DNA from: Strigamia acuminata
Taxonomy: Eukaryota
NCBI GenBank assembly: GCA_949358305.1
Contig: OX442314.1
Location: forward strand, 28,396,001-28,460,000
Length of the DNA stretch: 64,000 nt
Reading direction: 5' to 3'
Numbering within the stretch: position 1 is the first letter of the stretch; each line of letters starts with the position of its first letter. Shown here piece after piece: positions 171-41,199 of this stretch. Under the pieces are notes generated by a model. The model made no database searches. It was not told the origin of the DNA and saw only the letters and a program-made list of their open reading frames with translations. The translations under genes and the position numbers were made by a program.

Positions 171-665
171 CTGTCTTATCTTGACGTGCTGTAAATTGCT
201 TGAAATGTTGCTTTTTAACCAAAAATCTGTATAATTTTCAATTTTCACAGCTGCATAAATCATGCATCTCACTGGCAAAATACATTCATGTAATCTTTCG
301 AGGTTGCCTTGCACTGAAGAAACTTCTGGCATTTTTTCCCAGTATTCGGATAAAGATCCGGTATCGAGACTAAAGTACCTAAATTCTGAGTATGTCATTT
401 CACCTATTGGAACATATTCAATTTCAACCTTGAAATGTCCTTCAAAGTAGAATTGGATTCTTTCTATTGTCTGGTAACAACAAATGGTGCCACAAACGAT
501 CAAAACAACGAACCAAACTGCCCGGACTAAACTTCTCTTTTCTTTGTTGAAAATATTATCAATAAACTTCAAACTATCATTGCCTGACAGTGAAGTTTGC
601 ATTTCCTGCCGTACAAAACGACGAATATGACTTCGACGAAGCCTAAGAGCTTTCACCGCAGTCAT
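171..665 (-). CDS. DEG/ENaC-like channel, paralog copy A, first coding exon (gene continues off the window edge)
   Basis: Manual translation from ATG at 665: MTAVKALRLRRSHIRRFVRQEMQTSLSGNDSLKFIDNIFNKEKRSLVRAVWFVVLIVCGTICCYQTIERIQFYFEG...KIRQ then GT donor at 170. Same 495-nt length as, and high identity to, exon 27677-28171. Has the RxxW-TM1 pattern typical of the DEG/ENaC N-terminus. Confidence 0.7.
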
Positions 666-5030: not shown

Positions 5031-5064
5031 GTGGACGGATACACATACAGAAAACCATCCCCAA

Positions 5065-5425: not shown

Positions 5426-5764
5426 ATTTGACTTGGGTAGTATCTTAAGTAAAATACGACGTAAATTATGTCATGTGCAAAAATACATAGTCAAGCAGAT
5501 TTTTCTAAGCGCACCTAGATAAATTTTAAATGATTAGACAGGCATTAAAATTCTAACGATTTCCCTACATATTAAAAAGTTAAAACTATTCTAGTTTTTC
5601 TAGAGACAATACAGAGAAGTGTTAAACACTAAAAAGAAGAGTCATGTACTATAAAACTGTAGTTATTTTTACCTACAGATCGTTTTAGTCACTGAAACTA
5701 AATAAACACTGTACAAGTACAGTAATTGATAATTAATAATTGAAAAGCTGCATTTTACATAACT

Positions 5765-8700: not shown

Positions 8701-11700
8701 ATCTTTCTTTTCGACATCAGTCGAAACTTTCTCTTCCTTCTTCTCGACTTCAGCAGAAGTCAGAAAATCAGATTCTTCAGTCGCCTCTGTCGAGACGGCG
8801 GAAAACACAGCTTCTTCCGGCGCTTCGATTTCATCTGGACTCGGAGGCGGAAACGGCATGTCGTCGAGAAGCTCAGCCACAAAATCAACGACGGAAAGCA
8901 GCTCTTCAGCGTCCTCGAACTGTGCTTCGTCCGAAGTTTCAGACTTAGGCGCGATAGGAGCGCTCGACTCGTCGATCACGACCGCTGGAGGATCCTCCAC
9001 GGGTTTGGACGACGCTTCTACGGCCTGTTGAAGCTTACGAGCTCGCCCTCGTGCCAAGATGTTGGTTCGTTGAACCTTGGCGATTTCTCTCGCTCGGTCG
9101 AGCGTCAGACAGCCTCGTCCACGCGACATCGTTCTCGGTCGGACGAATTCTTCCACGACCTCGCTTCCAACGCTGTCGGCGGCCTGGACAGTTTCAGTTG
9201 AAACTTCGGAGTCCTCGGACGGCGGCGGTGATTGTCGAAGGAGTTCGACTCTTACGCCGGCGTTGGCTTCAGCACGCGTCCAGGTGAGGAAGCGCGGGTC
9301 GATGTATACAGCCTCGCCGCGGCTGTTTAGAAACAATCGGCACTTGGGGCAGTGAGCCCAACATCGCTTCTCATTCGGCTTAATACCTTTCACCACGTGG
9401 GGCTGAACCTCCTTGCGCCACGGCTCCGAACGCGGTCGCGTTTTCCTTCCACGGCAATTTGGACAACGCATCAATGAAGACCCTGCGGATGCACCGCAGC
9501 ACCACCCACAGCCGACGCAAAATGGGCAGATCGTCTCTGTTGCCTGGTCCGTCACGATGTTATCGTGAGGTATTCCGGCTGCCATGTCTCGTTCGCACTG
9601 CTCCTTGCGCAGGCGGGCCTTCTCGTCCTTCTTTTTGGCCTTGTTGGCCGCTCGGTACTCGCGGTTGCGAGAAACAGGCTCCGAATAACGCAAAGCGCCC
9701 GGCGGCGGCTCATTCCATCCGTATTCTGACGCAGAAGACTCAGCACCAGCAGGAAGATGCGTAACAGACGCTGATTGTCCCGTCACGGTCGGTGCAGCCG
9801 CATTCGACGTGTTGGCGACGGTGGGCGCCACGCTTGCAGTTGGCGGTCGAAATTCGGGTGAATGCGGGGCCAACGGGACGTTGATAACGTTCGCGGGCGG
9901 ATACGCCACTTGGGCCATCGGGGCCAATTGTGCCGACTCATAAACGGTTGGCTGTGCAGAAGTGGACGGGGCCTGCATCATCGCATTTAAGTCGAGCGGA
10001 AATCCGTCCGGATGGACGCTCAGCCAATTAAGCGTTGCGAGTTGCAGCGGCGTCAGGGCGTACATCGAGGCGGGCGCCGTCGGTATCGGTTGGGCCCTCA
10101 TGTAAGCACGTTCTGCTGAACGGCGTTGCTCGTCACTAGACGAGGTGGACGAGCTGGAGCTTTCATGTCGGTGTCGTCGATGACTCCTTTTTGAGCGGTG
10201 TTTACCACTTCCCATAATTAGAAGCTAGTTTTCCTGGGTTGAAGTTGGCTAAATGAATTAGCGTCGAAATTCTCAAGTCGAAAAGCGAAGACGGTTGAAG
10301 GGACGAAGTCACTAGTATCCGTGTGTTTAACGAAGTGTTTGTGTGCAATGAACCCTGGGAATTTTATTCCCTATTAATTGTCGGGTTCGAGGTTTAATCA
10401 CACCTCGTAAGTCTCGTACCTTCGTAATTACGCGAGATTATCACTTTTCAAAGTAATTCTCTGTATTTTGGTTAAAATACATGTAAATACGACCAAAAAA
10501 TTAAAATATTCTACCGAATATTTAATTCATCGCAACAAATTCATATTTTAATATAAATTTCCATAAGTATCGTAATATCTTGTCCCCCGGTGTTGAGATT
10601 ATAAATCACTACACCTGTCAGACATGTAAATAATTACAGTCTCCAAGTTTTGAATAAAACTTATCAATTCCAACAGAACTTTGAGGCTTTTCCTCGTTGT
10701 TGGTAAGGTTTTTTAAATACTGCAGTGATGTTTCGCACGAAATTTTCATCTGCATATTTAGGATTTGGTTTTCGTTCTCGTCGTGGATGAGTGCTAGTTC
10801 GAGGAACTATCGGTTGGGGTTTGCGGGGTTTTCGAGGCGGTTTCTTTGGAACTTCGCCTCTTTTTAACGCCGCTTTCCTTTCTATAGCAGTTAAGCGTTG
10901 TCTATGTCTATGTTTAGACTTTGTGGGCGCAGATTTGTCAATCTGCACTGAAGTTGAGTCGGATAATTCCATTGGAATTTCTGAGGAAGTTTCAGGAATT
11001 AATTCCATTTCTTCAGCATCCGGAAGTTGATTACTTTCGTCCATCCATTTAGGATTTTCTTGAGGCGAGTAAGAGGCGGACTTTTGTCCTACTTTCCAAG
11101 TCTCAATCGGGTACGAGGGCGTATAGGGGTACAACGCTTTAATGTTCACTGATTTTTCGATCGAACCATCAGATAATTTGCGTAATTTATACGCTCCGCC
11201 TGGAAGTACTTTAGTAATCTCCCACGGACCATCTCTCTTCTCTGCGAAACCAGCAGAAATATTTTTATCTGCGCACGAGAGAATGTGAGTTTGTTTCCAA
11301 ACTAAATCTCCAACTTCAAACTCCGTAATTACGAACTTTTGTTCGTGTATTTTCCTATGTCGTTCAAAATTCAATTGAATTCTGCGATGCATCTCTTGAT
11401 GCGATCTAATACATCCAATAGTACTCTAACATATTTTTCTGGATTTTCTTTGTCAAATGGATTGGCATGTTTGATAATCCTTGGGTCGAAGGGTAATGTT
11501 ACGATTCTCCCCGTGTTAAGTAGCATCGGGCTTGAGCCTGTTGCCGATGACACATTATTTCGCATTGCAAACGCAAATTCGTCTAAATAACGTGACCATT
11601 GCGTGTGCACATCTGTGTACAGGGCCAACATCGTCTTTATATCTCTATTGGCTCGCTCTGTCGGGTTCGCCTGGGCATGATACGTGCTTGTATGGGACGG

Positions 11701-14700
11701 GCGAATGTTGTACATTTCGCAATACTCATTGTAAATATCGGAAACAAATTGTTTTCCGTTATCGCTCACAATCTTTTTGGGGTGTCCCCATCTGTTTGTA
11801 ACAGATCTTAATTCTTGAACGCAGTTAGCGCTCGTGGCTTTTGTCAAAGCCTTAATTTCAACGAACTTGGTACAATTGTCAATAATGACAAAAATATACT
11901 GATTTTGGGACCTTCCCGCGGGTTTCGGGCCCATCAAGTCCATGTTAATACATTCCCAAGGATTGGTCATGTTGTGTGGTGTGTAAGGAGCTGCGTGCCT
12001 TTTCTGTTGAATAGGTTTGTACTGAGCGCAGTGCGTGCAGCTTTTAACGTAGTTCCTGACACTTCTACTCATACCAGGCCAGAAATATATTAAACGCGTT
12101 TTCTCAAGCGTCTTACTCATCCCAGCGTGACCGCTTAGGGGGTGGCCATGACAAGCGAAGAGTACTCGTTTTACGAGTGCACTGGGTACAACGGCTTTAA
12201 AGCCATTTCCCGAATCGTTTAATTCCTCTTCGAACGAAGGGTTAAAATAGATGATCATTTGATCACCATCAACTTCTTTTTTGTCTAAACAATAGTTTTT
12301 GACTTTGTTTTTCCATTCTTTTATTTCAGATTGTGGTATCCCAACAACCTTGTCATTCAATAAATATTCTCGAATGCGTTTGCATTCATTATCTAGTAAC
12401 TGAGCATCTATTATTTCTCTCCTTGTAGGAGGGACTTCCTTAAGTACTTCAGTCAACGCACTGTACAAGGTTTCTTGTACTTCCTCCCCCTCCTTTTCTT
12501 CAGAACATTCTTTAGAATTTTCTGAAAAATAGGAACGCACACTAGCCAAATATTCTCGTTTCTCCGGGGCACGATTTAATGAAACAGAAGGATTTCCGTC
12601 CCACTCAGGCCAGTATTGTTTAATTTCAACAGGTTCCACATGATCACGAAGAGGAATGTCTTCCTCTGTTAGTGGGGCTCTAGAAAGTGCGTCTGCAACT
12701 TGGTTAGCAGCACCTTTTCGAAAAACAATTTTAAAATTTCCACATTGGATTCTTAAGGCCCATCGGCCAAATTTCCCAGATGGTTCAGGCGTTCGCATCA
12801 ACCATTTCAGTGCTTCTGCATCTGACTCTAAAGTGAATGTACCATATTCGAGATATGGTTTAAATCGATCAATAGCCCACACAACTGCGAGACATTCGAG
12901 TTCCGGCGTTGTATAACGCTTCTCCGCTCCACGTAAAACTCTGCTTGCATAAGCTACAGGTCTGGGTACAGAAATGTTTTTCTGCTTCTTTTCATCGAAT
13001 ATATCGACATCTTGGCAAAGGACAGCTCCTAAGCCTTCATGAGAAGCGTCAGTCATGACGACAAATGGCAAAGTCATGTCTGGTTTATGGAGACAATTGT
13101 CACCACATAGTAGCTCTTTAATTCTATTAAAAGCTTCTGTCTGCTCATCTCCCCACTCAAATGGAGTTTTCTCATTCATCATACGTGTGTATGGCGCGGC
13201 AATAGTTCCGTGATTTGGAACAAACTTCCTGAAGAAGTTAGTCATGCCGTGAAAGCGCTGAATGTCTTTAGCACACGTGGGGGTGGGAAATTTCATAATC
13301 GCCGATATTTTGTCGGGATCACCGAAGAGACCTTCGGGTTTAATCCAGTGGCCCAAGAATTTTAATTCTGTACGCCCAAAACGAGATTTCGCTTTATTTA
13401 TTGTCATGTTGGCTTGGTTAAGCCTTTCCAAAACATCTCGAACATGTTTGAGATGATCATCCCAATTATCTGAATACACAATTACGTCATCCAAATAAAC
13501 TAACGCGTAGTCTTGTAAAGCTGAGCCTAAAATGCCTTCCATCAGACGCTGGAAAGTACAAGGCGCATTGCAAAGGCCGAACGGCATTCGCACAAATTGA
13601 TAAGGGCCGTTTGGCGTATAAAACGCCGTTTTTGGACGATCTTCCTCACACATTTCGACTTGGTAGTAACCTTTAACAAGGTCAATAGACGTAAAATACT
13701 TTGCCGGACCAGTATTATGCAATAAAAGGTCAATACTTGGCATTTGTATTACTTCGACTTCAGTGATGGCATTTAGCCACCGGTAGTCAATGCACATCCT
13801 ATACGAGCCGTCAGGCTTCGCAACAATGACTGGATGACTTATGAAGGGCCCCTTGGCCTTTTCAATGAGTCCATCCTGTTCCAATTCTGCAGCTAGTTTG
13901 GTCATAATGGCTCTCTTGGCCGGGTTATACATTCTATACTGCATTTTGGGCAATGAATGCCCTTCTTTGAACTTAATACGATGTTGGGTCACGTTAGTGC
14001 ACCCAACTTGATCACGAAATACATTCGGTATCGATTTAACCACTTCGCGAAGTGCTAGTCGTTGTTCTGGAGTGCAGTCGCTCTCCTCAACTAATTTTTC
14101 ATCCCAAGTCAACACAGGAGTGTCTGTTAACTCAATTGAGTTGAGAGTGGACGACAGTCCTAAATAATCGAAAGTAATTCGATTCAACGGGGCGAGGGCC
14201 AAATTGGCTTCTTCCGATTCATAAGGAGCGGACCAATTAGGTTTATCTGCACAAGAGAATTCTTGTAAATGTGGATGCGGACTAATTTTCTGTCTGCGCA
14301 TGAAATTGTGACCAAGTATCAAGCCACAAACATCGTTTTGCTAAAACGATGAAATTCATTGGTGTAAATTCATCAGCCCATTGCACGCACAAAGTTATTT
14401 GTCCGACAGGCTTGTGTGCTACGCCTACAGCGTTAACCAACATGTTTCTGGGGGCCTCTTGCAAAAATTCTGGCAAAGCCTGAGTTTCAGACAAGAGTTG
14501 TTCCCCAATGTAACATTGAGATGCTCCTGTATCCATGAGCGCGTTGTAGGTGAGCCCACCAATTGTGATCTTCATTCGAGGATCATCTTTATTATTACCT
14601 AAAGTAATATTGTGCAAATTATTGCCGCCTATGACTCTGTTGAGTCGGCGAAGTCTACAGAATTTCTTCGTGTAACACTTGTGGGGAAACAATGTCAGAT

Positions 14701-17700
14701 TTTTTAATTGTTCTGTCATTTCTTGCAGATTTTCCTCTACTCCGCCACTATGACTAGTGGCTACTTCAAGACAAGTTGTGTCTACATCCATAAATAAAGA
14801 TTCCGACGTAGCATCAGCCACTTCTGGGGGATGGAATAAACCTTCTTCCCCCGGATCTAGTTTTTTGAACTAGTCGCACTTGAATCAGCAGATTCTGGCT
14901 TGATCAAAGTCTTGACCATTTCTGCCAACGAGTTAGTCAGCGAAGTTTGTAACTTATTTTCAAAAGTATTAAGTTTCGCATCAAGTTTAGCATCTAGTGT
15001 TGCATCCAACACTTCTTGAGTTATCCATCTATTATTAGGACGTTTAGAAGTAGGATCCACAGTCGGGGAATCCGGCGTACTTCGTTTTTGCAACTCTTCA
15101 GAGTTGAAATTTGTACGTGGTTTTAAATCTGGACAATCTCGACGCATGTGTCCTGGTTTCTTACAGTGGTAACAAACTAATTGACCACGTCTGGTCTGAT
15201 CTACTGCTCCATTTATTAGATAAACGGCCTCACACTCCTCAGGTAACTCTTCATCACAAATATTAAGTTGTTCTTGTGAATTCAAAGTTAAAGATTTAAC
15301 ATTTGTCTTCGACTGAGGACGTGTGTCAGTTTTCCGAGGTGGGAAAACGACTGGATTGGAAATATTTTCCCTTGCTCCATTAGCTGTACGACTGTACAAG
15401 CCTTTATTTTTTGTTATAACGGCATAAATCTCTGTCAGAGGTAAATCTGCTATGCCTTGCGTATGCAAAAGCAAATCATTAGCAGGAGTTACACTCCCGA
15501 TAAAAAGACAACCAGCTCCTTTTGCATCAAGACTGTCTTGTAATATCCATAACTGGTAATATTTGTGCATAAAGTCGTAAAGACTTTCTGTTTCCAGTTG
15601 TTTCAACTTAGTTAGTTGGTTCGTCCGCTCTTGTCGAGTGGCTACAAACCGTTCTTTGAACGCCTGTTCAAATACTTCCCAAGATATGAAATCTTCTCTC
15701 CTTTCATGAAACCAACCATGCGCTTGCTCGGTTAAATAACCGGCCACGCCTTTAACAAGCATGTCATCGAGTGACATGTTTCGCAGGAAAGCGACATTTT
15801 TTACAATATTGAGAAAGCGTTCGCTTTCTTCTGCTTTTCCGGAGAATACAGGGATATCTGGTGGTTTCAAACAGTTAGTTTGAGGGACAGTGGCGGAACT
15901 TTTTCCTGCCTGTATTAACTTGTGCATGGTCGTGGCAATTGACGCGAGGTCATCAGCCGTCATTCCAAAGCTACTGGGGGGGCGCGAGTTGTCATTTGAC
16001 GACCCGCCATTATTTGGTTGACTCGAGTTATTTTGACTTGAGCCACCACTATTGGGGTTGAAATTATTCGACCCTCCTTGATTTGACCTGCTGTGGTTAC
16101 CAAAGTTCGAATGGTTATTCGAATTGCCTCGGTTTCCATAATTCGAATGATTATTAGAATTACCCTGATTGTCAAAATTCGAACGGTTGTTCGAACTTTC
16201 TTGATTACCAAAATTCGGACGATAGTTCGAATTACCTGGCGTACCTCGATTCAAATAGTTATTTGAATTTCCTGGAGTTCCAGTAGAAGGATTATTTAAA
16301 TCATTCGGATTATTTAGGTTATTCGAGTTCGGAGGAACTGGGTGACCCCTTTGCATGTTAGGTGCTGGACTAGAATTGTTTGCAAATCTAGAATTTGGGT
16401 CAAAACGACGGTTTGGACCTCTTGTCGCACCTGAATTTGGGTTCAAATTTCCAGCGAGATTCGGACAACTATTCGATCCGTTTAGAAAACTTGGATTAGG
16501 GTTGACCATATTAGGCGGATCCAAATTCGCTCTGTTGAACGTATTCTCAAAGTTCTCTGGATTTGTAAATCCCCTTTGTTGGTTGCGAGCGAAGTTATTC
16601 GCTCGTAATCGTTGTTGGAAAGCACGATTAAAATCTCCTGGTGTCAAATTCGACTGATCTTGACGAGGAGGTTGTGCATTTTTATTTCTATATCTAGAAA
16701 TAGGCGTCGAAGGAGTGGGACTAAAATTATTTAATCTTTGGCTGGCTGGGGAATGGGGTTGCTCCGACGTAGCACGAGGTGCGTGCACAAAATCTAACAC
16801 TTCGGTCAAAGATCTAAATTGGTTTGGGTTCAAACCGTGATCCTGACAAAATAATAGACCGCCTCGGCCTAAATGAGAACCTTCAGGAATGCATTCCTCT
16901 TCTCCAGGCGGAGTAGGTTCACGTGGAGCCCTATTCTCTCCAGATGGTCCGGCTGTTTCATTTGAAACGCCATTATGGACCGCGTGGTTTTCCACTTCTT
17001 CAGTTCCATTAGGAACAGGTATAAACCCGGATAGATTCATTCCACCGGTCAAACAAGTTCTTTCCTTACCACGGGTGTTCATGTGATGCTGGTTATTAGT
17101 CATAACTAAACTTAAAACTAAGAAAATTTCCTAAGTCTGAGAGATAACGATGAAGTTGCAAACGTTCAGGAGGATCGCAAACGAAGCAGTGGTCACACTA
17201 GTTCGAAAGGAAGTAAGGGTACTTCGATACACCTCTCTGATTGGTCAAGTATCAACGCTAGTCTCGCGAGAGTCCAATCTCGTCCGAGATTGGTGGAAAT
17301 CACTAACTTCGTGGAACCTTAATCTTGTCAGATTTCAGTGTTATGACGTAGTCACAAACAATATGGATACTTTTCAAAGTACCCTAAAATATTATCAAAT
17401 TTATGTAATAAAATGACCATTCCATGAGAATTTTAAAGTATTAAAACCCACAATTTTAATAAAGCGCGTCAAATCGTTTGAATCGACGGCTTCTCTGCAC
17501 AACCTGGTTGCTAGGCAACACAACAGTGAGAATTTTTCTTCGCTAAAATTCGAACGGTACTCCATTCGTAAAAATTCGATTCCAACGCCTTGAAATCACG
17601 ATTTTTAACCAACATTCCAATGTAAATCACGTCTGTAAAATAAGGTAAACCCACTTTGAAATAAAATATAAATTTTAATTCCTTCGAAAAAGCGTCAATT

Positions 17701-20700
17701 TTCTTTCTAATTTATTTAGGCAAATAAATTTAGGTTTGACTTGAAGTCTCAAGCAAAATACATATAAAAGAATATTCTAAAATTAAAACAACTGTTAAAT
17801 TGATAGAATTCTTTAAGAATTCCATCAAAAGTCAACTTTTCAAAATTAGGCCCGACCGCGTGGTTTTGTCAGATTGTCAACGACAAAATGACGTTACCCG
17901 GGCGGAACCAACTTCAACAAGTTCGGGCAAGATTCTCCGTTCTCAGGGTTTAGGCCTTTAGGCCTGACCACGCGGTAGAAATTACTATTTTGTTAAAACA
18001 AATAATTTCCACTGCGGAGAAAACAGAATAAAGTGAGTGACACTTATTATCTTGCGAGAAGTTCTAAAACAGAATAAAATATATTAAACACTTATAAATC
18101 TCAAACGAAATTTATTTTACACACAAAAATCACCATAAACGTTACATTACTCGAGTTCACCATAGACATGCAAAACTTCAAATTTTATTTAAAATTTGGC
18201 AGCCTATCTCGGTAGAACCTCCACTTGTGACGGTTCTAACGAGATTCCTATAAAAAGAAAAACATTATACATACATGGATTCTATCACACAAAAATTTCA
18301 TTCGAAATTTTATCACCGTAAGCACATTTCCGAATTCTCATACACATAATACACAAACTCAAAATTCATTTGAATTTTTTGCAGCCTTATCTCGGTAGAA
18401 CCTCCACTTGTGACGATTCTACTTTTGGGCTAATTTATTAGTCCTTTTGAGATAGATAATTCGGTTTATACAAGACGTTGCTAAGTTTAACAACAACCTA
18501 ACCGAGATAAGCTACGGAAGCCCTTACAAACATGAATATGTGATCAAGTAGGAATAACTTACAGTTTTAGTGTGCCATAACATATTTATTACTAAATATT
18601 AATGATAACAGAGATGGGTTCTGGACGCGTGTAAACAGGCGGCATCAACTGGTTGAGGATCCGGGCGAAGCCAAGGGATACGGCTGACTTGCGGCATCGT
18701 CACAAATAGCGCTACGGAGACGCATTTGGTCCGCAGCTCGAATATCTAATAATGCGAAGAATCCTTCGCATAAGTAGGAATATTCGGCAGAATATTCCAT
18801 GTTCCAAATGAATAAAAGTAATTAGTGGAATACAACAAATGAATTGTTGTATAAATATTAATTGGGCGGGGACCGTCACGACAATTGAGAGAACGTCGCG
18901 GGAGTTGTTGAGACTCCATCCGCCAGCATGCCTTACGACGACAAGATCTCGTGATCAGGCGCCGAGTATTTGTTTGTACGCTTTAATTCGCTGTCGGTGG
19001 TACCAACCACCAGGTAAACATTTCTATGGACTTACCGGGTTTAAAAGATATTGCCAATACAGGATTACCAATGCCCGAGTAATTTATTTAACACGACATA
19101 TTTATATATCATTCACGGGTTACTAACCCGGAGGGTACGATGGGGCGGGGACCGTCACGACGGTCGAGAGAACCATCGCGGGAGGATTTGACTCCTCCAT
19201 CCGCCAGCATGCCTTACGATGGCGGGATCCAACGATCGAGCACCGGGTAAAATATTATTTGGCCACTGCCGTTGGATTACCATTATCCAGGTAGTTATTT
19301 ATCGCAACATCTGCAGATATTACTCACGGGCTACCAACCCGGCGTGTTACCTGTGCATTAGGCCTTTACCGACTTTTAACGAGCGGAAGGACCAATCGTA
19401 GAAAGACGGGAACCTGCGTGGGCTGTTTACAACAACCATCCTGCAGCGGACTGTGGCCAGTTAGCTGAGGGACCTACTTTCATTTGGCAAGGTCGTACTG
19501 TATACGACCGTTATATTAAGCCACCGTACGAAGTCCTACTGTCCCGTAGAACAGCTGGCTAACGTTACGGGGCCATTTCATGCGAATGCATGTCTATTAC
19601 CGGAGTTGGCCTTCCCGAAAAGGCCTTACAACAACAATAACAGATAGTAATGAATACTATCTGTGGAGAGCTGAGGTGGCCTGATGTGTCGATAGAGAAT
19701 AATGAAATCAAACGATAACAATTCAACTACAGACAATATACAAGTTCAGTTATCAAGCAAGCCAGCGGAAGTGAGAAACTGGAGCTTATATAGTTCTGTA
19801 GAACTACTAGATTGGCGACAGCCAATCAGCGTACGAATCGGCGGATTCGTGGGTCACTAGTCCGGACCTAATATATGACTATGTCCAGATGGGCCCAGTT
19901 GGGGGCAGGAAGGGTCCAATTGGTTCCCTTCAACAGGTAAGTAATGTAAATATTGATTCGATAGAATCAACTTGTCAAGTAAATAATACTTAATTTATAT
20001 CGAATAAAATAGTTATATTTTATTCACCGTGTTTAAATAATTATTTATCACACTTTTAGTTTTATCGAGTTTGAATTACGCGCGTTTGGTAAACAGCGCC
20101 ATCTATTGTGAACATTGATAAATACGGATTTGTAATCATCACAATGGTAACCTAAAATTATAAAGATTTATTACAACCCAGTGCAGTAACTCATACCGTA
20201 TGGTGTCAACCCCTTTGACTTTCCCCATGCATGGACCTCCTCTGAGTCCTCTTGTACCAGCCCATACAGAATCTTTAGTTAATTTTGTAAATTTAGCTTC
20301 TAAATTTAGAAAAGACTTAAAATAAAAAAACAAGAAAATTTGAGATAGATACACGACAATCTTATTTTGCATTCTGATGTCACCCTGATTGATGGTGTAA
20401 GCCAGTGCAGTCCGCACTCCCTGAACTCTGGTAAATAATCTCTATTTCTACCGTAACTTTGGTGTGGAGTTTTTCGGGTTCGAGACAGACATGTTAGGTC
20501 GCCAGAGGGCGCTTGGACGTAACACCGCTAACACGTGCATTGTCAAGACGCCCGATAGACGTTTATTGGCAACAGCCAATAGGAGCGAGCGATTGTTGTA
20601 TTTAAACAGGGTTATTTTGTAATAATAAAGAACTAAAGAACACTTTTGAATTTAAACTAGCAGAGTGTGTGTCGTGCACTGATGGTCCACCATTGTTTAT

Positions 20701-23700
20701 TTTCGGAGTCAGCTGTCAATTAGTTTTGATAGTTTATGGAGTGTTTTGCACTCCATCTTATTTTTGATAATTTGCGCCATCTGTACTTTCATGCAAATAA
20801 AATTCATTTATGCTAATTCTACACTACTGGCTGGTCACTGCTCCAATCCAATCCAGCCGTATTATTGCAATCCAATTGCATCCATTTTCCATCCACACAA
20901 TCCAAGCACAAGATCACATCAGTTTACACTACAAGTAGAACTTCTGGATTTTGAGGGCCCAAGTAGCAACGTTCAAATCTGTGAAGAAATATTACTCACT
21001 TGCATCGAACAAAATTATAAATCATTTTTTTATAACAATCATCCTCGCATCGTTTGTATTTGTCGTGGTCAAGACAAGGTTGTGCTCGTAAGTTTAATCG
21101 AACGATCTAAAATAGAGCAAATGTTTCAAGAGTGTATATGTAATAAACTGATGTATTACTTTAATCATCTTAAATGTAATAACAACTAAGGTGTTATCTA
21201 CAATACTTCTTCTACTTCTGAGAATTGATGGTATTTTAGCATCATTTTGTCGAAAGTATATCTACAAAAGAAATTACGATTACCAACAATTTCTACATTT
21301 ACACATGTAACTAAACATAACCACAGTACAAGTAGTTCGCCTGGGCAATTTACACCTCTGATCCCATCCATCTAAGCAGTTTACCATTAACCATGACTTT
21401 CCCTAAAACGTACATTACGTTACGTGAAAAATATTATAAAGAATCAATCTGTACTGAGGGACTACTACGGTAGTAACTTATTACACATTGATCAAGACAT
21501 ACAAGACGGCAGAAAAGTTGGCACATTGACGTGTCCAGTCTTGTAGTCAGTGTTAAGATCTGAAATTTCAGATATTAATAGCTACTGTTCTACCAGATTT
21601 TTTAAATTGAATATTCCATCTTTTCATTGTCATTTTTACCGTACGGATTACTTAAAATTGCAACAACATTTTCAAGTTTTCTTTTAACTGAATTGTAGCT
21701 CAATAATGGTAAAATGTAGAATGATATCTTTAACACTACGATTCATTCATTTATTTTGTTATCTTTAAAAAATTGTATGAAAATTGGTCATGACCTGAAC
21801 TTAGTTTTGACCAATATTCCATTTATTTGTCAAGGAATTGTACATTACTTCATACTCATGCTGATTACATATTTGACCTGCCAATGGTTGCAGACTAAAA
21901 AATATTAGTGATATAGGTAGCTCCGGCAAATTTCAGTGGTGCTGCAACAAGATAAAGCTCGTATTAATTTTTCATGTACAATTTATATAAAATGTCTAGT
22001 TATGTACGTATATCAGATTGAAAGCATGTTCCAGTGGGCATAGCTATTTTACTCCATGTTACATTAGTTCTTACTCCAGTAACCTGCAAAAACATTTATG
22101 ATCATGTGACCGGCAGGCCACCTGGGTGACCTGCGGCACTGCCACACACCACCATACGGCCCCAAAGGTCAAACCCCTCTGTGGGTAATTGACCTAGCCC
22201 GGGGAGGAGGGAGTGGAGTGGTGTGGTGAGGAGAGGAGTGGAGGAGAGAGAGTTGTAATAGACACGGCCTGAGAAGGACGTGTCTGGAGTGGCTCCCCGA
22301 GAGGAGAAGGTGTTCATCTGGGAGGGACAAGAAGTGTCCCGGTTTGGACTCTGTACTCCTCACCATTCACCACGATGATACTCAGTACAGCGGCTGAGCC
22401 CGTTGTGCAGCCTCCATGAGTGGACGCGTGGGTCATAGGTAAGTACAACATGAATGCCTAGTCGAACCGACCACGTCACCCATTGGGTTCCCACCCAGTG
22501 TGTGACGGGCCGGTTGCCGGTGCGGCGTGCCTTTGTGGCACCAGCGCAGCGGGTAACGGGATTCCCCATACCCCTAGACAACGCAATAAAGGCCAACCAA
22601 CCAATATTGTGGGATTCTCCGTTATTTCACGTGAAGTATGCTTCCCTACCCAGTGTTCTCAGTCCCCTGACTACATTGGCACAATCAACTTTCAGTTAAT
22701 TAACATACGTTTGTAGATTAAACAATTGTATGTAACCAAAGGTACCCTCGCTCTGTTTATTAAATGGTGCAACCTGAGTTTGAAACCCTCTCTAAAAATC
22801 AGTTCTGTTCATAGCACAAAAACTGTAACCCATTATGAAAATAACATCCTAAAACAACAGAATTTATCTTAATTATGTTATTATTATTTTCTATTCTACA
22901 TTCTACCTAGAACATCCACTTCATTAGTATAAAATTTGCTTTTGTCTTTAAGAAACCGTAAAGAATTGTTTTAAAATGAATTCCTTTATGATTTAATGTC
23001 AGCAAATGTTTGATTTGTATATGTATTTTAGATACCTAGTCTGGAGTCGTGAAAACCTTTCTCGAGCGAAAAGAGGTCGTGAGTGGAAAAAGTTTGTTCT
23101 CAACTGTTTTTACATAAAGATTATGTTTGATGTACAGCAGATCCCCAACTTACGTACACACCGTGGCTCGACCCACCCAGATATCCCAGTACTAAATTTG
23201 TACCCAGTCCAGCCCTGGTTACAAACATCCAAACTTAAAAGATACCAATTACAAATTAAGTTTACGTGGTTGGGACTAGGATAAGCACAAATAATAAACA
23301 ACAATATATTGTTGTTTATTACGCAGTAATTTATAATAAAATCATAAAATCATAAAAAAAATATGATTCAAAAATGTTTTTCTTAATTACAGGGGTAAAC
23401 AATTTTTTCACTTTGTATGTAGATCCTTGACAGCAGAACAAGTGCTTGGAACTCTACTACGGTAATTCAAAAGTTGAGGACCTGCTGTATATATGCATAA
23501 TCTCGCTTTCATGTGATTGGATGCAGAATGCTGGGTGCATTCGTATTCAATCCTTGATATTGGCGCCCTCTTGCAAACACGGATGCCAAAATTTTATTTG
23601 GTCTATAAACTGTCACGATTAATTCAATGTTGGGGAATTAATTTAACAAAATTATCGCGGGAAGGTGGAATTTGCGCAATGTTAGGGCAAAGGCTCGTGG

Positions 23701-26700
23701 ATTTCCCTTAACTTGGTCATCGTCAAATAAGGACATCGGGTGATTAAAAAAAATCCTGGTTCGCTGTGATTCAACATTATTTATATTCGACAGTATCGGA
23801 CTCACGGTTGGTATATACCGTAACTAATCACGCAGAGGGTGAAAAATGTCTTCAGGCATGTAAATATAAAATAGCGGGTCATAAGCGGCGCGGTAGGATT
23901 ATTATTATGGAGGAGCGCTTGTGAGGACGCAAAATTAATAATGGGTGACGTTCTCAAACTAAAATCTAGGAGTAGAAGCTCGGTCAAAGGTAGAAAGAGA
24001 AATGATTTTAATGAGTAGAAATGAAATTAAGTCACCTTGATCATATGTTGATTGGCCTCATCAACTATGATCGGACGTGAAGGAAGAAATAAAGTTGATT
24101 GTTGAAAATAATGTGATGCGCAAATCTTTGCGCATACATTTAGAAGAATGAATCAGCAAAATAAAATAGAATGAAAATAATACAAAATAGAAAAATAAGA
24201 ATAGGTCAAATCAAAATAAAAAATAGGGTACGTAGCATGTAAGTTGACGTTATGTGTATGTGTATCAAGATGGGTCCACACCTGCGTAACATCGCGATGT
24301 ATATGCAGATGTGAACCCATCTTTAGAGGAATACTTACCAAATAGGCATTGGCCATTGCAAGTTTATTCATCGCAGGCGTTTGGTATCGCCACACATCTT
24401 CTATTGACGGTTTTTTGTTCTTGATAGTCATGTTCATTAAATTGATAAAATGAATCTTGCATTCATTCTTGCCTATTTCTTTAGCATATTTCCTCCTGAA
24501 GGTAGTCATTACGGATCCATCCATACATGCAATTAAATTGGGTAAATACAATGTGTGATTTTCTTGAATAATTACCACATATCTTGTCGGCTCACTCATA
24601 TATAATGCGATTCTTTCTTTGCTCACATAAACTGCCAATATCGCAGAAGTAAATATAAGCATTAAATTCAATGTAGATTGCAGTAGAAGTTTTTTTTGTG
24701 GCTGCTGCATCACACTTTGAGAAACATCTTTCTTTTTGTCGATGACCAAATGCATTTGCTTAGTAGTTTTCTTTTTTATGCTCGCTTTAAGTTGGGCAGG
24801 TCTGATGTATTTAGACAAAATGAGAACAAACATTTGAGCAATTTCAATCAAAGACAGAAGAGAAAATCCCAAAGAGAATCCCAAATTGCCCCCAAAATCG
24901 ATCAATAAGTTTGGAATGGTGTAAATGTAGGTTTCTGTCATTCTGACAAACAATTCTTCCAATACTTTAAAATTGAGACTTATTAGATCTTTGCCACTTG
25001 GTTCATCTTGAAAATCTAACTTAAAACATAATAATTTTGAGAATGATGTATAAAAATACAATTATACTCTGGCTGACCGTAAGTGGGTACCCAGTTCATA
25101 TTGGCCAAGCCTGTTTACTCCTAATGTTGCCGTTATATTACCACCAGCAAAAGTAGTTTTTTTTCACTCAATTTTTGTGATTATTGTAATGATTAAAATA
25201 ATATCATTTTAATTGGATTTTATAATAGAATAATTTTCGAATTTATAAAATACAATTTTATGCTGTTTTTAGTTTAATACACATGTCTGTTTAGTTTAGT
25301 GATTACTTTACCTGGAAAGCACACAATTTTGAATTTTGCCAATTACCTAGGCTATCGATTGCAATGTCTGTACATCTATTGTGTTTCTGGTGTTTTGGCT
25401 TACTTTTAGGTATACCAGTGAAATGGCTCGGCCAATAGGTGAGCCAGAGTATAGAAGATGTTATCGTTTAACTTGTATCAGAATAGAGTAGAAACAAATA
25501 AACATTCTGTTCACAAGGTCTCAAGCAACCACAATCGAACGATGGCAGTGTAGTCGTTTCATGGAAATATGCTTCGTCATACATTTCAGCCACAATTGAT
25601 TTGTTTGACTCTAAACTGCAATCCATCAAAGTTTTGTTGGACATAAAAGGCAACCTGGTAAGTCAAAAATCTATGAGTTTATCAATATTTAGATGTTGCA
25701 TGCAATTAGACCTGCATCGTTGAGGAGTTTTTTTCCTCACACAATCTTCGTAGCATTGGGTTTCCTTTTTCTTATCCGGTTCACAATAGGGATGTCTCGA
25801 AGCTAAAAATTGATACTACCAAAAAACAAATGCAGCATTACTATATTTGGTAATCCATCACAATAAACACGATGGACAAGCTGACATCTGATATATTCAA
25901 ACTTATAAACGTTTGTAATGCACTACAAATTTCACAATATCTGCAACAGGTTAATTGAGCTTACACTTCGAATGAAAAATTGCATATCAGATTCAATTCC
26001 TGACGCCACCGAGAAAGTATATTGGTGAGACATAACGCCAACTACCGCTGTCATCTAATATTCAAGTGTGTAAAAATAAAAGTATTACGTTACAAACTCC
26101 AATAAAATCGTAAAAAATGAGATTCTTATCGAAATTTGTGGCTTGACACAGTTGGTGCTATTCGTTTTGAAGAGTAGGTGTAATTTCATGTTTTGTGCTA
26201 ATTTTCGATCTGGTATACTTAAACTTAGGGGCCGTTCATAAATTACGTAACGCACAATTTGGGATTTTTAGACCCCCTCCCTCCCCCCTCTGTAACATAG
26301 TCGTAACATAGTCGTAACTTATGGACGGCCTCTTATACACTTTTGTAATGCACTACAAATTTCACAATATCTACAAACACAACAGGTTAATTAAGCTTAC
26401 ACTTCGAATAAAAACGTGAATATCAGATTCAATTCCTGACACCACCGAGAAAGTATATTGGTAAGACATGACGCCAACTACCGCTGACATCTAATATTCA
26501 AGTGTGTAAAAAAAGTATAAGTTACAAACTCCAATAAAATAATAAATGATGAGATTCTTACCGTAATTTGTGGCTCGATACAATTGGTTCTATTCGTTTT
26601 AAAGAGTATGTGAAATTTCATATTGGGGGCTAATTTTCGATCTATAGATTTAGCCAAAAATATTAAAACCTCAAAATTATTTTATTTTGTTTTAATTTCT

Positions 26701-28171
26701 AACTTCTTTTAATTTCTAAGACCAAAGATCGTCCACCGACATCATTTCGATAGCTTAGTGAAAATTCTGTGTTATCCTTTCTAGAAATTCCTTCTTTAAT
26801 TGTTGTTTCATGCAATACAGTTTTGCCCTGAAAAGTTATACGAATATAGTTGTACCATAATTCAGGATATTACTGTATACGTATAAAATGCACACTACAC
26901 GTACCCCCCCCCCCCCCCATTTAACTCCGATAATCAAGTTCCCTTTATAAATAACTACACTGTGATATAGTGTTTATATGAATAATTGTAAAGATCGCCA
27001 CGAGATGGCGATAGATTGTAAAGTGTGTGACCGAGGATATAAAGGTCGTTGAAGGCCAAATAAAGTCAGATAGGAATCAAGTACGAATGCGTGTGTGTGT
27101 CACCTTTATTGGACATGTTACGACATTACATACACATACGATAAAAAAATTATGGCATTATGTCCATGAATTTGCTGTCATTTACTGTCACGTCCATGAA
27201 TAAAATTGAACAATTTCGGTCCCACTAACACTTGTTTTGCATTGTTTTTAATAACAATTTTTACAAGGATCTGAATACTTATTATAATGAGAATGACAAC
27301 TGTAGGATGCTGGGCTTCAGCATCAGTGACCAATTCCCTGCATCCCATCGTTGCCCAGGAGATGGAATAATTCAGACAGAGCTTATGATTTAGTGTCTAA
27401 CTTCACTTCCTGTTTTACACAAGAAAGGTCATTTGTTGCTACTCTCTAACAGAGAAGCAAAGTAATTCTTTATTGTTTCTTTTCCTGACCAACCGTCGCT
27501 AAGGGGAAATATGGAAGCTGCATGACGACATCAGTGATTGTATTGGTAGCAATACTTGTACAAGCCTAACTTTTATCATTAAAAGCTAACAATTACTAGA
27601 ACAATTTTATGTGGTGACAGTACATAATATCAACAAATATCCCATCCGGTATTAATAAAATAATAGGATTAAATACCTGTCTTATCTTGACGTGCTGTAA
27701 ATTGCTTGACATGTTGCTTTTTAACCAAAAATCTGTATAATTTTCAATTTTTACTGCTGCAGAAATCATTCCTTTCAGTGGCCAAATACAAACACGTAAT
27801 CTTTCGATGTTGTCTCGCATTGAAGAAACTTCTTCTATTTTTTCCCAGTATTCGGACAAAGATCCGGTATCGAGACCAAAGTACCTCGTTTCTGGGAACG
27901 TCATTTCACCTATTGGAACATATTCAATTTCAACTTTGATATGTCCATCGATGTAGAATTGGATTCTATCCATTGTCTGGTAACAGAAAATAATGCCACA
28001 AACGATCAAAACAACGAACCAAAGTGCCCGGACTAAACTTCTCTTTTTTTTGTTGAAAACATTATCAATAAACTTCAAACTATCATTGCCTGACAGTGAA
28101 GTTTGCATTTCTTGCCGTACAAAACGACGAATATGACTTCGACGAAGCCTAAGAGCTTTCACCGCAGTCAT
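5765..28171 (-). CDS. Tandem two-domain DEG/ENaC-like channel gene (copy B), multi-exon, last exon disrupted by an LTR retrotransposon; probably a disrupted allele or pseudogene
   Basis: Exons read with GT/AG ends: 27677-28171 (TM1a), 26562-26641, 26401-26490, 25712-25802 (CEPD...CYEDCV...CR), 25473-25654 (LPFM...CGCLRPCEQ), 24339-25015 (GGNLGFSLGFSLLSLIE TM2a, linker, TM1b, YMSEPT...LYLPNLIAC), 22008-22083 (PTGTCFQ), an exon from 21941, and a final exon 20144-20151 + 5765-6207 (LPFL...CGCHPLCEE...DIGNSFALMLGLSILAIPE TM2b, stop). Several internal exons are unresolved. Confidence 0.7.
6212..7946 (-). repeat. 3' LTR
   Basis: Matches 18409-20143 at offset 12197; only one mismatch noticed by eye (7666 T vs 19863 C). 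Confidence 0.97.
7585..7632 (-). promoter_or_regulatory. LTR promoter: TATA box and paired CCAAT boxes (also 19782-19829 in the 5' LTR)
   Basis: Minus-strand TATATAA at 7589-7595, with ATTGG/CCAAT motifs at ~7614 and ~7625 just upstream, ~350 bp into the LTR. Confidence 0.55.
7947..7958 (-). other. Polypurine tract (short)
   Basis: Minus-strand CACCGGGGGATG directly abuts the 3' LTR start. Confidence 0.6.
8698..10215 (-). CDS. Retrotransposon accessory ORF3 (505 aa), Cys-rich, unknown function, not env-like
   Basis: Intact sense-orientation ORF between pol and the 3' LTR; basic/Ser N-terminus, Pro/Ala region, CPFCVGCGWCC..CPNC..CWAHCPKC cluster, acidic C-terminus; no evident signal peptide or TM helix. 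Confidence 0.75.
   Translation of the reverse strand: MGSGKHRSKRSHRRHRHESSSSSTSSSDEQRRSAERAYMRAQPIPTAPASMYALTPLQLATLNWLSVHPDGFPLDLNAMMQAPSTSAQPTVYESAQLAPMAQVAYPPANVINVPLAPHSPEFRPPTASVAPTVANTSNAAAPTVTGQSASVTHLPAGAESSASEYGWNEPPPGALRYSEPVSRNREYRAANKAKKKDEKARLRKEQCERDMAAGIPHDNIVTDQATETICPFCVGCGWCCGASAGSSLMRCPNCRGRKTRPRSEPWRKEVQPHVVKGIKPNEKRCWAHCPKCRLFLNSRGEAVYIDPRFLTWTRAEANAGVRVELLRQSPPPSEDSEVSTETVQAADSVGSEVVEEFVRPRTMSRGRGCLTLDRAREIAKVQRTNILARGRARKLQQAVEASSKPVEDPPAVVIDESSAPIAPKSETSDEAQFEDAEELLSVVDFVAELLDDMPFPPPSPDEIEAPEEAVFSAVSTEATEESDFLTSAEVEKKEEKVSTDVEKKD
10664..11392 (-). CDS. Integrase C-terminal part (GPY/F region), frameshifted from pol
   Basis: FEVGDLVW...KRDGPWEITKVLPGGAYKL motif; overlaps the pol ORF end in the -1 frame at ~11392. 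Confidence 0.85.
   Translation of the reverse strand: MHRRIQLNFERHRKIHEQKFVITEFEVGDLVWKQTHILSCADKNISAGFAEKRDGPWEITKVLPGGAYKLRKLSDGSIEKSVNIKALYPYTPSYPIETWKVGQKSASYSPQENPKWMDESNQLPDAEEMELIPETSSEIPMELSDSTSVQIDKSAPTKSKHRHRQRLTAIERKAALKRGEVPKKPPRKPRKPQPIVPRTSTHPRRERKPNPKYADENFVRNITAVFKKPYQQRGKASKFCWN
11371..14322 (-). CDS. pol: Pol: protease C-terminus, reverse transcriptase, RNase H, integrase core
   Basis: ILGHNF; RMCIDYRWLN; MPFGLCNAP; YLDD; TDAS; ELECLAVVWAI; ADALSR; H-H-C-C zinc finger; MDLMGP; SDNGKQF; ERANRDIK. Confidence 0.96.
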   Translation of the reverse strand: MILGHNFMRRQKISPHPHLQEFSCADKPNWSAPYESEEANLALAPLNRITFDYLGLSSTLNSIELTDTPVLTWDEKLVEESDCTPEQRLALREVVKSIPNVFRDQVGCTNVTQHRIKFKEGHSLPKMQYRMYNPAKRAIMTKLAAELEQDGLIEKAKGPFISHPVIVAKPDGSYRMCIDYRWLNAITEVEVIQMPSIDLLLHNTGPAKYFTSIDLVKGYYQVEMCEEDRPKTAFYTPNGPYQFVRMPFGLCNAPCTFQRLMEGILGSALQDYALVYLDDVIVYSDNWDDHLKHVRDVLERLNQANMTINKAKSRFGRTELKFLGHWIKPEGLFGDPDKISAIMKFPTPTCAKDIQRFHGMTNFFRKFVPNHGTIAAPYTRMMNEKTPFEWGDEQTEAFNRIKELLCGDNCLHKPDMTLPFVVMTDASHEGLGAVLCQDVDIFDEKKQKNISVPRPVAYASRVLRGAEKRYTTPELECLAVVWAIDRFKPYLEYGTFTLESDAEALKWLMRTPEPSGKFGRWALRIQCGNFKIVFRKGAANQVADALSRAPLTEEDIPLRDHVEPVEIKQYWPEWDGNPSVSLNRAPEKREYLASVRSYFSENSKECSEEKEGEEVQETLYSALTEVLKEVPPTRREIIDAQLLDNECKRIREYLLNDKVVGIPQSEIKEWKNKVKNYCLDKKEVDGDQMIIYFNPSFEEELNDSGNGFKAVVPSALVKRVLFACHGHPLSGHAGMSKTLEKTRLIYFWPGMSRSVRNYVKSCTHCAQYKPIQQKRHAAPYTPHNMTNPWECINMDLMGPKPAGRSQNQYIFVIIDNCTKFVEIKALTKATSANCVQELRSVTNRWGHPKKIVSDNGKQFVSDIYNEYCEMYNIRPSHTSTYHAQANPTERANRDIKTMLALYTDVHTQWSRYLDEFAFAMRNNVSSATGSSPMLLNTGRIVTLPFDPRIIKHANPFDKENPEKYVRVLLDVLDRIKRCIAEFN
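14282..14860 (-). CDS. Pol N-terminus with aspartic protease active site, reached by -1 frameshift from gag
   Basis: ALMDTGASQCYI motif; this frame is open back to the A AAA AAC site at the gag stop. Confidence 0.85.
   Translation of the reverse strand, partial: LDPGEEGLFHPPEVADATSESLFMDVDTTCLEVATSHSGGVEENLQEMTEQLKNLTLFPHKCYTKKFCRLRRLNRVIGGNNLHNITLGNNKDDPRMKITIGGLTYNALMDTGASQCYIGEQLLSETQALPEFLQEAPRNMLVNAVGVAHKPVGQITLCVQWADEFTPMNFIVLAKRCLWLDTWSQFHAQTEN
14857..17103 (-). CDS. gag: Gag (748 aa): Asn/Gly/Ser-rich N-half, capsid-like domain, CCHC zinc knuckle
   Basis: PPDIPVFSG...A..WF...SWEVFEQAFKERF capsid-like motif; CYHCKKPGHMRRDC knuckle. Confidence 0.92.
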   Translation of the reverse strand: MTNNQHHMNTRGKERTCLTGGMNLSGFIPVPNGTEEVENHAVHNGVSNETAGPSGENRAPREPTPPGEEECIPEGSHLGRGGLLFCQDHGLNPNQFRSLTEVLDFVHAPRATSEQPHSPASQRLNNFSPTPSTPISRYRNKNAQPPRQDQSNLTPGDFNRAFQQRLRANNFARNQQRGFTNPENFENTFNRANLDPPNMVNPNPSFLNGSNSCPNLAGNLNPNSGATRGPNRRFDPNSRFANNSSPAPNMQRGHPVPPNSNNLNNPNDLNNPSTGTPGNSNNYLNRGTPGNSNYRPNFGNQESSNNRSNFDNQGNSNNHSNYGNRGNSNNHSNFGNHSRSNQGGSNNFNPNSGGSSQNNSSQPNNGGSSNDNSRPPSSFGMTADDLASIATTMHKLIQAGKSSATVPQTNCLKPPDIPVFSGKAEESERFLNIVKNVAFLRNMSLDDMLVKGVAGYLTEQAHGWFHERREDFISWEVFEQAFKERFVATRQERTNQLTKLKQLETESLYDFMHKYYQLWILQDSLDAKGAGCLFIGSVTPANDLLLHTQGIADLPLTEIYAVITKNKGLYSRTANGARENISNPVVFPPRKTDTRPQSKTNVKSLTLNSQEQLNICDEELPEECEAVYLINGAVDQTRRGQLVCYHCKKPGHMRRDCPDLKPRTNFNSEELQKRSTPDSPTVDPTSKRPNNRWITQEVLDATLDAKLDAKLNTFENKLQTSLTNSLAEMVKTLIKPESADSSATSSKN
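18389..18406 (-). other. Primer-binding site complementary to the tRNA-Gln 3' end (second copy at 18206-18223)
   Basis: Minus-strand TGGAGGTTCTACCGAGAT begins 2 nt after the 5' LTR; its complement ATCTCGGTAGAACCT-CCA matches the eukaryotic tRNA-Gln 3' end as recalled. Confidence 0.85.
18409..20143 (-). repeat. 5' LTR
   Basis: Direct repeat of 6212-7946, followed on the minus strand by the PBS. Confidence 0.97.
20463..20695 (+). repeat. Short LTR-like dispersed repeat; related inverted copy at ~28970-29198
   Basis: Both start TGTGGAGT and share CCGATAGACGTTT(T)ATTG..AACAGCCAAT, AATAAAGAA..CACTTT(T)GAATT and GTGTGTGT; no TSD found. Confidence 0.35.
22105..22683 (+). mobile_element. Solo LTR (579 bp) in a DEG/ENaC intron
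   Basis: TGTG...CACA termini; ATCA duplicated on both sides (22101-22104, 22684-22687); AATAAA at ~22586. Confidence 0.75.
25913..26645 (-). repeat. Internal tandem duplication (~300 bp) of two DEG/ENaC exons
   Basis: 25913-26215 resembles 26343-26645; both hold an 80-nt and a 90-nt exon; the donor of the second 80-nt copy is GT>AT. Confidence 0.85.
26228..26332. mobile_element. PIF/Harbinger-like MITE; related one-ended copy at ~45904
   Basis: GGGGCCGTTCATAA...TTATGGACGGCCTC TIRs; TTA on both sides. Confidence 0.7.
26961..27130 (+). mobile_element. Very short solo LTR (170 bp)
   Basis: TGTGAT...ATTACA termini; 5-bp TSD TACAC (26956-26960, 27131-27135); internal TATAAA and AATAAA. Confidence 0.7.
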
Positions 28172-29915: not shown

Positions 29916-41080
<11,165 letters not shown>

Positions 41081-41199
41081 TTTACATTCCTAATTGAGTA
41101 ATTTTTCAATTTCCTAATTTTTTTTTCAAATCTGAAAAATCAAAAAATTTAAATTACAAAAAATCATTTCGGCAAAATCGGAAGAATACATCGACACTC

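Follow-up and report, generated by a model that had tools for sequence, protein, structure and literature searches.

Subunits of DEG/ENaC cation channels are described in reviews as two-helix proteins that assemble as trimers (PMC10148893, PMC9822975), and a gene of the centipede Strigamia acuminata raises the question whether two such subunits can occur naturally in one polypeptide. The gene lies on the minus strand of a 64,000-nucleotide (nt) stretch, hereafter the window (assembly GCA_949358305.1, contig OX442314.1, forward-strand positions 28,396,001 to 28,460,000), and all coordinates count from its first letter. An initial annotation, made from the letters alone, had placed the joint between two subunits within one exon at 24339..25015. 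We consider it likely that the gene carries two complete DEG/ENaC subunits within a single reading frame and is a member of an old centipede family of multiple copies, that its four-helix chain would fill two of the three positions of one cation channel, and that the copy in the window has been disabled by a frame break and a retrotransposon.

An open frame across two subunits

The junction exon, exon 7 of our gene model, was found where the initial annotation had put it. It is 677 nt long (minus strand 25015-24339), runs from phase 1 to phase 0 between canonical splice sites (AG at 25017-16, GTAAGT at 24338) and belongs to an open reading frame of 302 codons. The frame is open throughout, from the last strand and second transmembrane segment (TM2) of repeat 1, through a Lys-rich linker annotated at about 40 residues and measured at 41, into the first transmembrane segment (TM1) of repeat 2, a hydrophobic stretch that is followed by the motif YMSEP...LYLPNLIAC. 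The joint sits within this single exon, with neither intron nor spacer between the repeats, and repeat 1 has no stop codon or terminal exon of its own.

At local non-coding starts, chance frames stayed open for 45 codons in 6% of cases and for 160 codons in 0.08%. A helix-plus-motif pattern, written after the sequence had been seen, occurred 0-1 times in 20,000 in shuffled sequence. A transmembrane-plus-motif pattern, likewise written after seeing the sequence and based on the family motif, was searched for in the six reading frames of the window and matched in exon 1 and in exon 7 only. The N-terminal half of repeat 2 scored 47.7 bits (E 7e-17 as a single comparison) over positions 7-123 of a profile of 15 related domains built without the window. 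On its own this half had no Pfam match, and searches of the PDB with it and with exon 11 were blank or at chance level; exon 12 found only BRTNaC1 there, at E 3.3. A profile-profile comparison between exon 1 and the N-terminal half of repeat 2 was not significant, and AlphaFold2 on the junction exon alone gave an unusable model (predicted local distance difference test score, pLDDT, of 40).

The complete model comprises 13 exons with GT-AG ends and encodes 866 residues with four hydrophobic segments, at residues 43-68, 405-427, 468-487 and 804-825 by Kyte-Doolittle hydropathy only, in agreement with the four transmembrane segments first proposed. Exons 1-7 form repeat 1 and exons 7-13 form repeat 2, exon 7 closing the first and opening the second. 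Two ASC-type domains had been expected in the spliced protein, and a profile of the relatives described below found them at full length (residues 26-427 and 464-835, 137 and 175 bits); Pfam ASC by itself exceeds its cut-off in exon 1, in TM2 of repeat 1 and in exon 13, and misses the N-terminal half of repeat 2. Exons 2-4 and 9-10 are supported by phase fit and profile alignment. Upstream, a TGA lies in frame three codons ahead of the ATG, and downstream the gene ends with the stop at 5765, so that it has no third repeat; a third domain in further exons, which the initial annotation had allowed for, is also unsupported in that seven exons per repeat fill the full length. We rejected the reading of exon 13 as no more than an alternative final exon for repeat 1, exons 7-12 building a whole second repeat. 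In place of one subunit with two helices and free cytosolic N- and C-termini, the frame holds two domains and four helices, and we therefore file the chain as a tandem variant, not as a canonical subunit.

The two repeats are about 25% identical and have intron positions and phases in common, among them a phase-2 intron at C-R/K|LPF and a phase-0 intron located 11 residues ahead of the first cysteine of the thumb. Their C-terminal halves align at z 18.6 and their N-terminal halves marginally, at z 2.3, the middles being unalignable. Each repeat has one set of the thumb motifs CxxDC, LPF and CGC. The TM2 signature reads DFGGNLG with GFS in repeat 1; repeat 2 has GLS but DIGNSFA, with two glycines gone. 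The His-Gly motif that precedes TM1, which many but not all family members have, was not found in repeat 1, which has LKF opposite the LHG of ASIC1, nor in the linker. Its lack does not exclude the repeats, because the centipede channel PDPNaC1 is also without it.

Relatives, other copies and the age of the joint

A phmmer search with exon 7 against 1.84 billion representative proteins (E up to 0.001) returned 35 matches, each with an ASC match. Thirty of them were looked up by name (P0017, P0024, P0025, P0030 and P0031 being outside that set), and 22 of the thirty are uncharacterised Strigamia maritima models. The same TM2-linker-TM1 joint occurs in 21 of the 35, 20 of these named S. maritima; P0002 and P0009 were counted by their domain envelopes, and P0033, which aligns without a second TM1, was excluded. 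TM2, a basic linker and TM1 are kept in 19 of 20 aligned relatives, at 89-117 residues from the TM2 Asp to the Pro after TM1, and no motif shared by the 19 linkers is visible beyond their basic residues. The closest relative, P0001 (T1ITA9, S. maritima), is 64% identical to exon 7 over 223 residues (48/66 before the linker, 15/39 within it and 78/114 after it) and matches exons 6, 7 and 8 in order. The joint-bearing proteins share about 25% identity among themselves, and P0004, P0015 and P0016 each contain two whole domains. Joined-subunit sequences are already in the databases, unnamed: the UniRef entries T1ITA9, T1JD34, T1ITL7, T1IPM9, T1J963 and others carry neither name nor description.

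Word-index protein searches were blank, a limit of that method because phmmer does find relatives, and a metagenome scan gave no match. Queried with P0016, the Atlas returned only ASC clusters of single-domain size, by which a tandem cluster is neither shown nor excluded. An AlphaFold2 model of P0016 from a 21-row alignment (pLDDT 67, linker below 50) contains two DEG/ENaC folds: residues 51-381 superpose on PDPNaC1 (Z 18.7, root-mean-square deviation 3.8, 315 aligned) and residues 423-787 on BRTNaC1 (Z 19.9, root-mean-square deviation 5.0, 340 aligned). The hand-shaped fold was predicted for this relative, not for the spliced protein of the window. The single frame, the relatives with the same joint and this two-fold predicted structure together support two subunits in one polypeptide, as the initial annotation had claimed.

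Contigs over the joint come from public runs under the same species label from two studies, one of which may be the source of the window (82 and 43 contigs on 301 nt). They hold 37 substitution rows and no insertion or deletion (indel), and none of the substitutions creates the stop that had been proposed as worth seeking in the linker of other copies. Diverged pieces over the joint carry 16-18 differences in 129 letters and are gap-free. The wider region has 160 indel rows against 858 substitution rows, counted under other thresholds, a ratio by which about 7 indel rows would be expected at the joint, as a rough control, against 0 seen. Some TM2-like contigs continue into unrelated sequence, and relatives with other tails therefore exist. 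Of the runs from two further organisms, those of one yielded no contig on the joint and those of the other a single, partly fitting one; no inference was drawn. Exon 1 is present in a second, tandem copy at the edge of the window, and the two copies show 0 indels over its 495 nt, compared with 11 over 380 nt of flanking sequence; judged from this comparison the frame is kept and the protein is changing fast.

An unrooted tree was built from 45 domains. It excludes P0001, P0017, P0024, fragments below about 230 residues and the middle repeats of P0027 and P0029, which are shortened. One side of a branch (94/87) takes in all 11 centipede-type first repeats, and the second repeat of the window falls in a group of eight rows (98/95) that holds seven of the nine second repeats (that of the window and six others) and one fragment. 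First repeats keep DxGGNxG in TM2, and all six second repeats with a TM2 are without one or both glycines. One old fusion followed by expansion would best explain this tree, the fusion appearing old because the repeats group by position across paralogues. The initial annotation had also called it old, arguing from the divergence of the two domains; the age holds and the argument is replaced, as divergence between repeats would not date the fusion and dating from it alone was rejected.

Several points weigh against a real and old family of linked subunits. The relatives are automatic gene models, mostly fragments, known from protein sequence alone, and such models can join neighbouring tandem genes. 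The diverged contig pieces tile the joint, no single contig spanning TM2 to TM1, and neither the absence of stops (P 0.09), nor the excess of silent changes (14/37, P 0.09), nor the third-position changes in the linker (7/20) is significant alone. Exon 1 evolves fast between the two tandem copies (ratio of nonsynonymous to synonymous substitution rates, dN/dS, 0.70). Two of the nine second repeats lie outside the second-repeat group, many branches of the tree are long, and the first-repeat branch (94/87) is just under the bar for marked support. Within exon 7, two ATGs lie in frame (24755 and 24710) and two sites weakly resemble donors (24715 and 24626), from which separate subunits could arise. 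The copy in the window has two lesions, the frame break in exon 9 and the retrotransposon in a coding exon.

These lesions, together with the habit of automatic prediction of merging tandem genes, would suit an accidental fusion, in which a stop was lost between two dying neighbours and the joints in the databases are merged predictions. We hold this to be very improbable and largely refuted: the joint lies within one exon without intron or spacer, it recurs with the same spacing in 21 proteins that share about 25% identity among themselves, the closest being 64% identical to exon 7, the repeats sort by position in the tree, and the diverged contigs show no indel or stop.

From two repeats to a three-fold channel

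We propose that two neighbouring genes fused when the last exon of one merged with the first coding exon of the next, with loss of the stop and the spacer, and that the fused gene then multiplied. The chain would be made whole, its two repeats would be neighbours in one trimer, and the short basic linker would stay cytoplasmic, tying the end of repeat 1 (TM2) to the start of repeat 2 (TM1). With larger residues at the positions of the PDPNaC1 pore glycines, repeat 2 would act as a constant partner and give the pore its asymmetry. A repeat-1-like subunit, either a separate single-domain protein or repeat 1 from a further chain, would take the third position, in a proposed 2+1 stoichiometry. A sensory role, in response to protons, heat or chemicals, is our guess, because the nearest solved relatives are antennal channels (PMC9974506, PMC12714832).

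These relatives, the centipede channels PDPNaC1 and BRTNaC1, are the best solved matches by sequence and by the fold of P0016. They resemble the repeats in subunit length (421-431 residues), in their compact ectodomain and in having no HG motif, and BRTNaC1 resembles them also in its seven exons. They differ in being single two-helix subunits, PDPNaC1 forming a homotrimer, whereas the gene in the window holds two repeats in one frame. Gly375 and Gly378 of PDPNaC1 are pore constrictions and affect selectivity (PMC12714832), and repeat 2 of the window has Asn and Ala at these positions. A mixed pore is favoured over a repeat-2 homotrimer because repeat 2 has lost these glycines.

The proposed assembly has difficulties of its own. 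Two repeats do not go evenly into three positions, so that it needs an extra assumption. ASIC1a dimers engineered head-to-tail produce currents in oocytes and also yield cleaved monomers, and because monomers are shed, such currents do not show how the dimer assembles (PMC4529235). The same shedding would fit a different use of the fused frame, namely co-expression of two subunits that are later separated by cutting of the linker, by an internal start or by alternative splicing, and that work as an ordinary heterotrimer. This we find improbable. The two internal ATGs do lie 22 and 7 codons before TM1 of repeat 2, donor-like sites are present in the linker, and the linker is poorly conserved (15/39 against P0001); the ATG at 24710, however, varies in one contig, the 19 linkers have no visible shared motif beyond basic residues, and repeat 1 lacks a stop or terminal exon of its own.

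Another arrangement, unlikely in our view, accepts the chain as real and places its repeats in different trimers, three chains building two tethered pores, or chains cross-linking channels into clusters; mixed 2:1 and 1:2 trimers are a possible variant. Six domains divide evenly into two trimers, so that no free subunit would be needed, and the linkers, which vary (89-117 residues between anchors), are long enough to reach outwards. What speaks against tethering is the loss of the pore glycines in second repeats, because of which a pore made wholly of repeat 2 would be unlikely to conduct like PDPNaC1, to judge from PMC12714832.

The preferred reading, in which the chain fills two positions of one trimer, has an artificial parallel in engineered ASIC and ENaC concatemers, which are also head-to-tail, with a cytoplasmic linker and a fixed make-up, and which can conduct (PMC10329638, PMC4529235); engineered trimers fix stoichiometry (PMC10329638). 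These constructs are man-made and usually join three subunits with full tails and an added linker, whereas the gene in the window joins two diverged repeats and has about 40 residues in all between TM2 and TM1. Unequal subunits likewise share one pore in heterotrimeric ENaC and in the pickpocket channels of insects, but these subunits are separate genes and proteins (PMC10148893, PMC9822975). The S. maritima models have the same two-repeat layout and the same joint as the gene in the window.

In K2P, TPC and Nav/Cav channels, gene fusion replaces a symmetric oligomer by linked, specialised repeats around an asymmetric pore, and there the number of repeats divides the four-fold symmetry. The chain described here differs in that two repeats do not divide a trimer, and its fold is unrelated.

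Full-text literature searches, with subscription journals and bioRxiv supplements outside their scope, gave no report of natural DEG/ENaC concatemers. Fused or tandem subunits were not found by term look-ups in PMC5203786, PMC8438182, PMC10507113, PMC9822975, PMC10148893, PMC7067487 and bioRxiv 10.1101/2022.06.28.497943. The family is unmentioned in the main texts of the Strigamia and millipede genome papers (PMC4244043, PMC7523956), most supplements of PMC4244043 lying outside the search. An earlier mention of natural concatemers cannot be excluded.

A natural, old and expanded linked family would, if true, mean that evolution fixes DEG/ENaC subunit make-up by fusion, and that fusion lets each pore position evolve separately. 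It would pose the structural question of how two repeats fit into a three-fold channel, and supply natural material on which asymmetric gating and selectivity could be studied. A further lesson is that ASC models with several domains can be real, although they are often put down to annotation errors. The copy in the window is a poor test object; intact-looking relatives are T1JD34, T1ITL7, T1IPM9 and a Penaeus protein.

Longer chains came from the same phmmer search and were assessed from protein sequence, not DNA. P0013 and P0034 (Halocaridina rubra) have three full domains, and P0027 and the P0029 cluster (Halocaridina; Penaeus vannamei) have three repeats with a short middle one. The decapod repeats group by position (first repeats 97/90, third repeats 97/94). 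Five members of the P0029 cluster are 1001 residues long and lie on assembled contigs of 3.4-4.0 kb, which leave little room for a merge across long introns. By their sequences P0013, P0034, P0027 and P0029/P0036-P0040 are candidates for single-chain pores. P0010 (Polypedilum vanderplanki) has three full pickpocket-like ASC domains with short gaps between them, and tandem genes may have been merged in this model. A Strigamia subfamily (P0002, P0003, P0008, P0012 and P0033) has near-alike repeats, at least three in a row as judged from two overlapping models that are 76% identical. We lean slightly towards the view that arthropods evolved single-chain, multi-repeat DEG/ENaC proteins more than once, as the centipede two-repeat family with specialised repeats, the centipede near-alike three-repeat subfamily and the decapod three-repeat chains (Halocaridina, Penaeus), the last of which could form a whole asymmetric pore, and that these chains are expressed, intact and set the make-up of the pore. 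If true, the decapod chains would be the trimeric counterpart of the step from Kv to four-repeat Nav/Cav channels.

Lesions and other features of the window

Exon 9 is one nucleotide longer than its flanking phases require and reads into an in-frame TAG. Under a splice-site filter, the open detours around it are two short paths only, of 6 and 9 codons, both of which lose about 30 residues. The break in the T run is either real or an assembly error. Exon 13 is split 8 nt past its acceptor (20151) by a retrotransposon of 13.9 kb. Its two long terminal repeats (LTRs), 1735 nt each with 1 mismatch, have TG...CA ends and are accompanied by a CCAT target duplication, and its coding order is gag, protease, reverse transcriptase, RNase H and integrase, all features of the Ty3/gypsy type. 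With LTRs that differ at 1 of 1735 sites, the element is very young by this measure. Because of the frame break and the insertion within the last exon, the copy in the window is probably a dead or damaged allele and non-functional. The initial annotation was right about the exon at 22083-22008 and about the thumb, TM2 and stop at 5765; its exon from 21941 does not stay open, and it overlooked both the broken frame and the element inserted into exon 13.

The gag, protease and pol frames of the element differ, and an extra 508-codon frame (8701-10224), ahead of the 3' LTR, had no convincing match in Pfam or NCBIfam. Contig depth over the LTR far exceeds that of unique pieces. An AG ten bases inside the LTR end (6221-6245, minus strand) has CTAAT upstream and no pyrimidine tract and is in phase with exon 12; splicing at this site could bypass the element and rejoin the frame.

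Table 1. Exons, junction parts and associated elements of the two-repeat DEG/ENaC gene, in window coordinates (E, expectation value; aa, amino acids).
Feature	Position	Strand	Evidence or remark
Exon 1: ATG, N-tail, TM1 of repeat 1, ectodomain start	27677..28171	-	Pfam ASC E 1.2e-5; ASIC1 in PDB E 1e-4; GT donor
Exon 2, repeat 1 palm	26704..26827	-	AG/GT, phase 0 to 1, open; weakest-supported part, no independent match
Exon 3, repeat 1	26562..26641	-	AG/GT, phase 1 to 0
Exon 4, repeat 1	26401..26490	-	AG/GT, phase 0 to 0
Exon 5, first thumb cysteines of repeat 1	25712..25815	-	Phase 0 to 2; position and phase as exon 12
Exon 6, LPF...CGC thumb of repeat 1	25473..25654	-	tblastn of P0001 60% identical, E 3e-15
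Exon 7, junction exon	24339..25015	-	Open frame; 64% identical to P0001 over 223 aa
TM2 of repeat 1 (DFGGNLGFSLGFS...)	24813..24899	-	Pfam ASC E 3e-9; hydropathy peak
41-residue Lys-rich linker, predicted cytoplasmic, stop-free	24690..24812	-	No stop or indel in contigs of two runs
TM1 of repeat 2 and YMSEP...LPNLIAC motif	24525..24689	-	47.7 bits against profile positions 7-123
Exon 8 (PTGTCFQ)	22008..22083	-	tblastn of P0001 52% identical, order kept
Exon 9, frame broken at T run near 21896-21901	21878..21941	-	64 nt against 63 needed
Exon 10	21356..21402	-	Phase fit with exon 11; inside profile match; acceptor failed pyrimidine filter
Exon 11	21160..21261	-	Model phase fit and profile alignment
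Exon 12, first thumb cysteines of repeat 2	21000..21106	-	tblastn of P0005 and P0016 44% identical
Exon 13 start, first 8 nt ahead of insertion	20144..20151	-	AG acceptor, phase 2, LPF motif like exon 6
Ty3/gypsy-type LTR retrotransposon in exon 13, gene orientation	6212..20143	-	LTRs 18409-20143 and 6212-7946
Exon 13 remainder: thumb, TM2 of repeat 2 (DIGNSFALMLGLS), C-tail, stop	5765..6211	-	Pfam ASC E 4.7e-6; PDPNaC1 E 5.6e-7
Exon 1 of next tandem copy, runs off window	171..665	-	83% aa identity to exon 1

The block of exons 3 and 4 is duplicated (25902-26211 and 26332-26643, minus strand, 87% identical). In the duplicate, the exon-3 copy has no GT donor and the exon-4 copy retains both splice sites, by which it could serve as an alternative exon. 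Intron 6 contains a repeat (25101-25442) that is 72% alike to an inverted stretch at 53885-54238, and contigs of other copies skip it.

Taken as a whole, the window is animal DNA whose minus strand carries genes rich in introns. At 5022-5519 (plus strand) there is a weak match to the DNA N6-adenine methyltransferase family PF05869 (E 1e-4, below cut-off), perhaps a mobile-element remnant. A Brahma/SMARCA2-4-like gene (SNF2, helicase C, SnAC, BRK and bromodomain) lies at about 29916-41089 (minus strand) and has long tandem-repeat arrays in its introns, and a gene of the LDL-receptor family, with class A and B repeats, EGF domains and an NPVY tail, lies at about 43214-50067 on the same strand.

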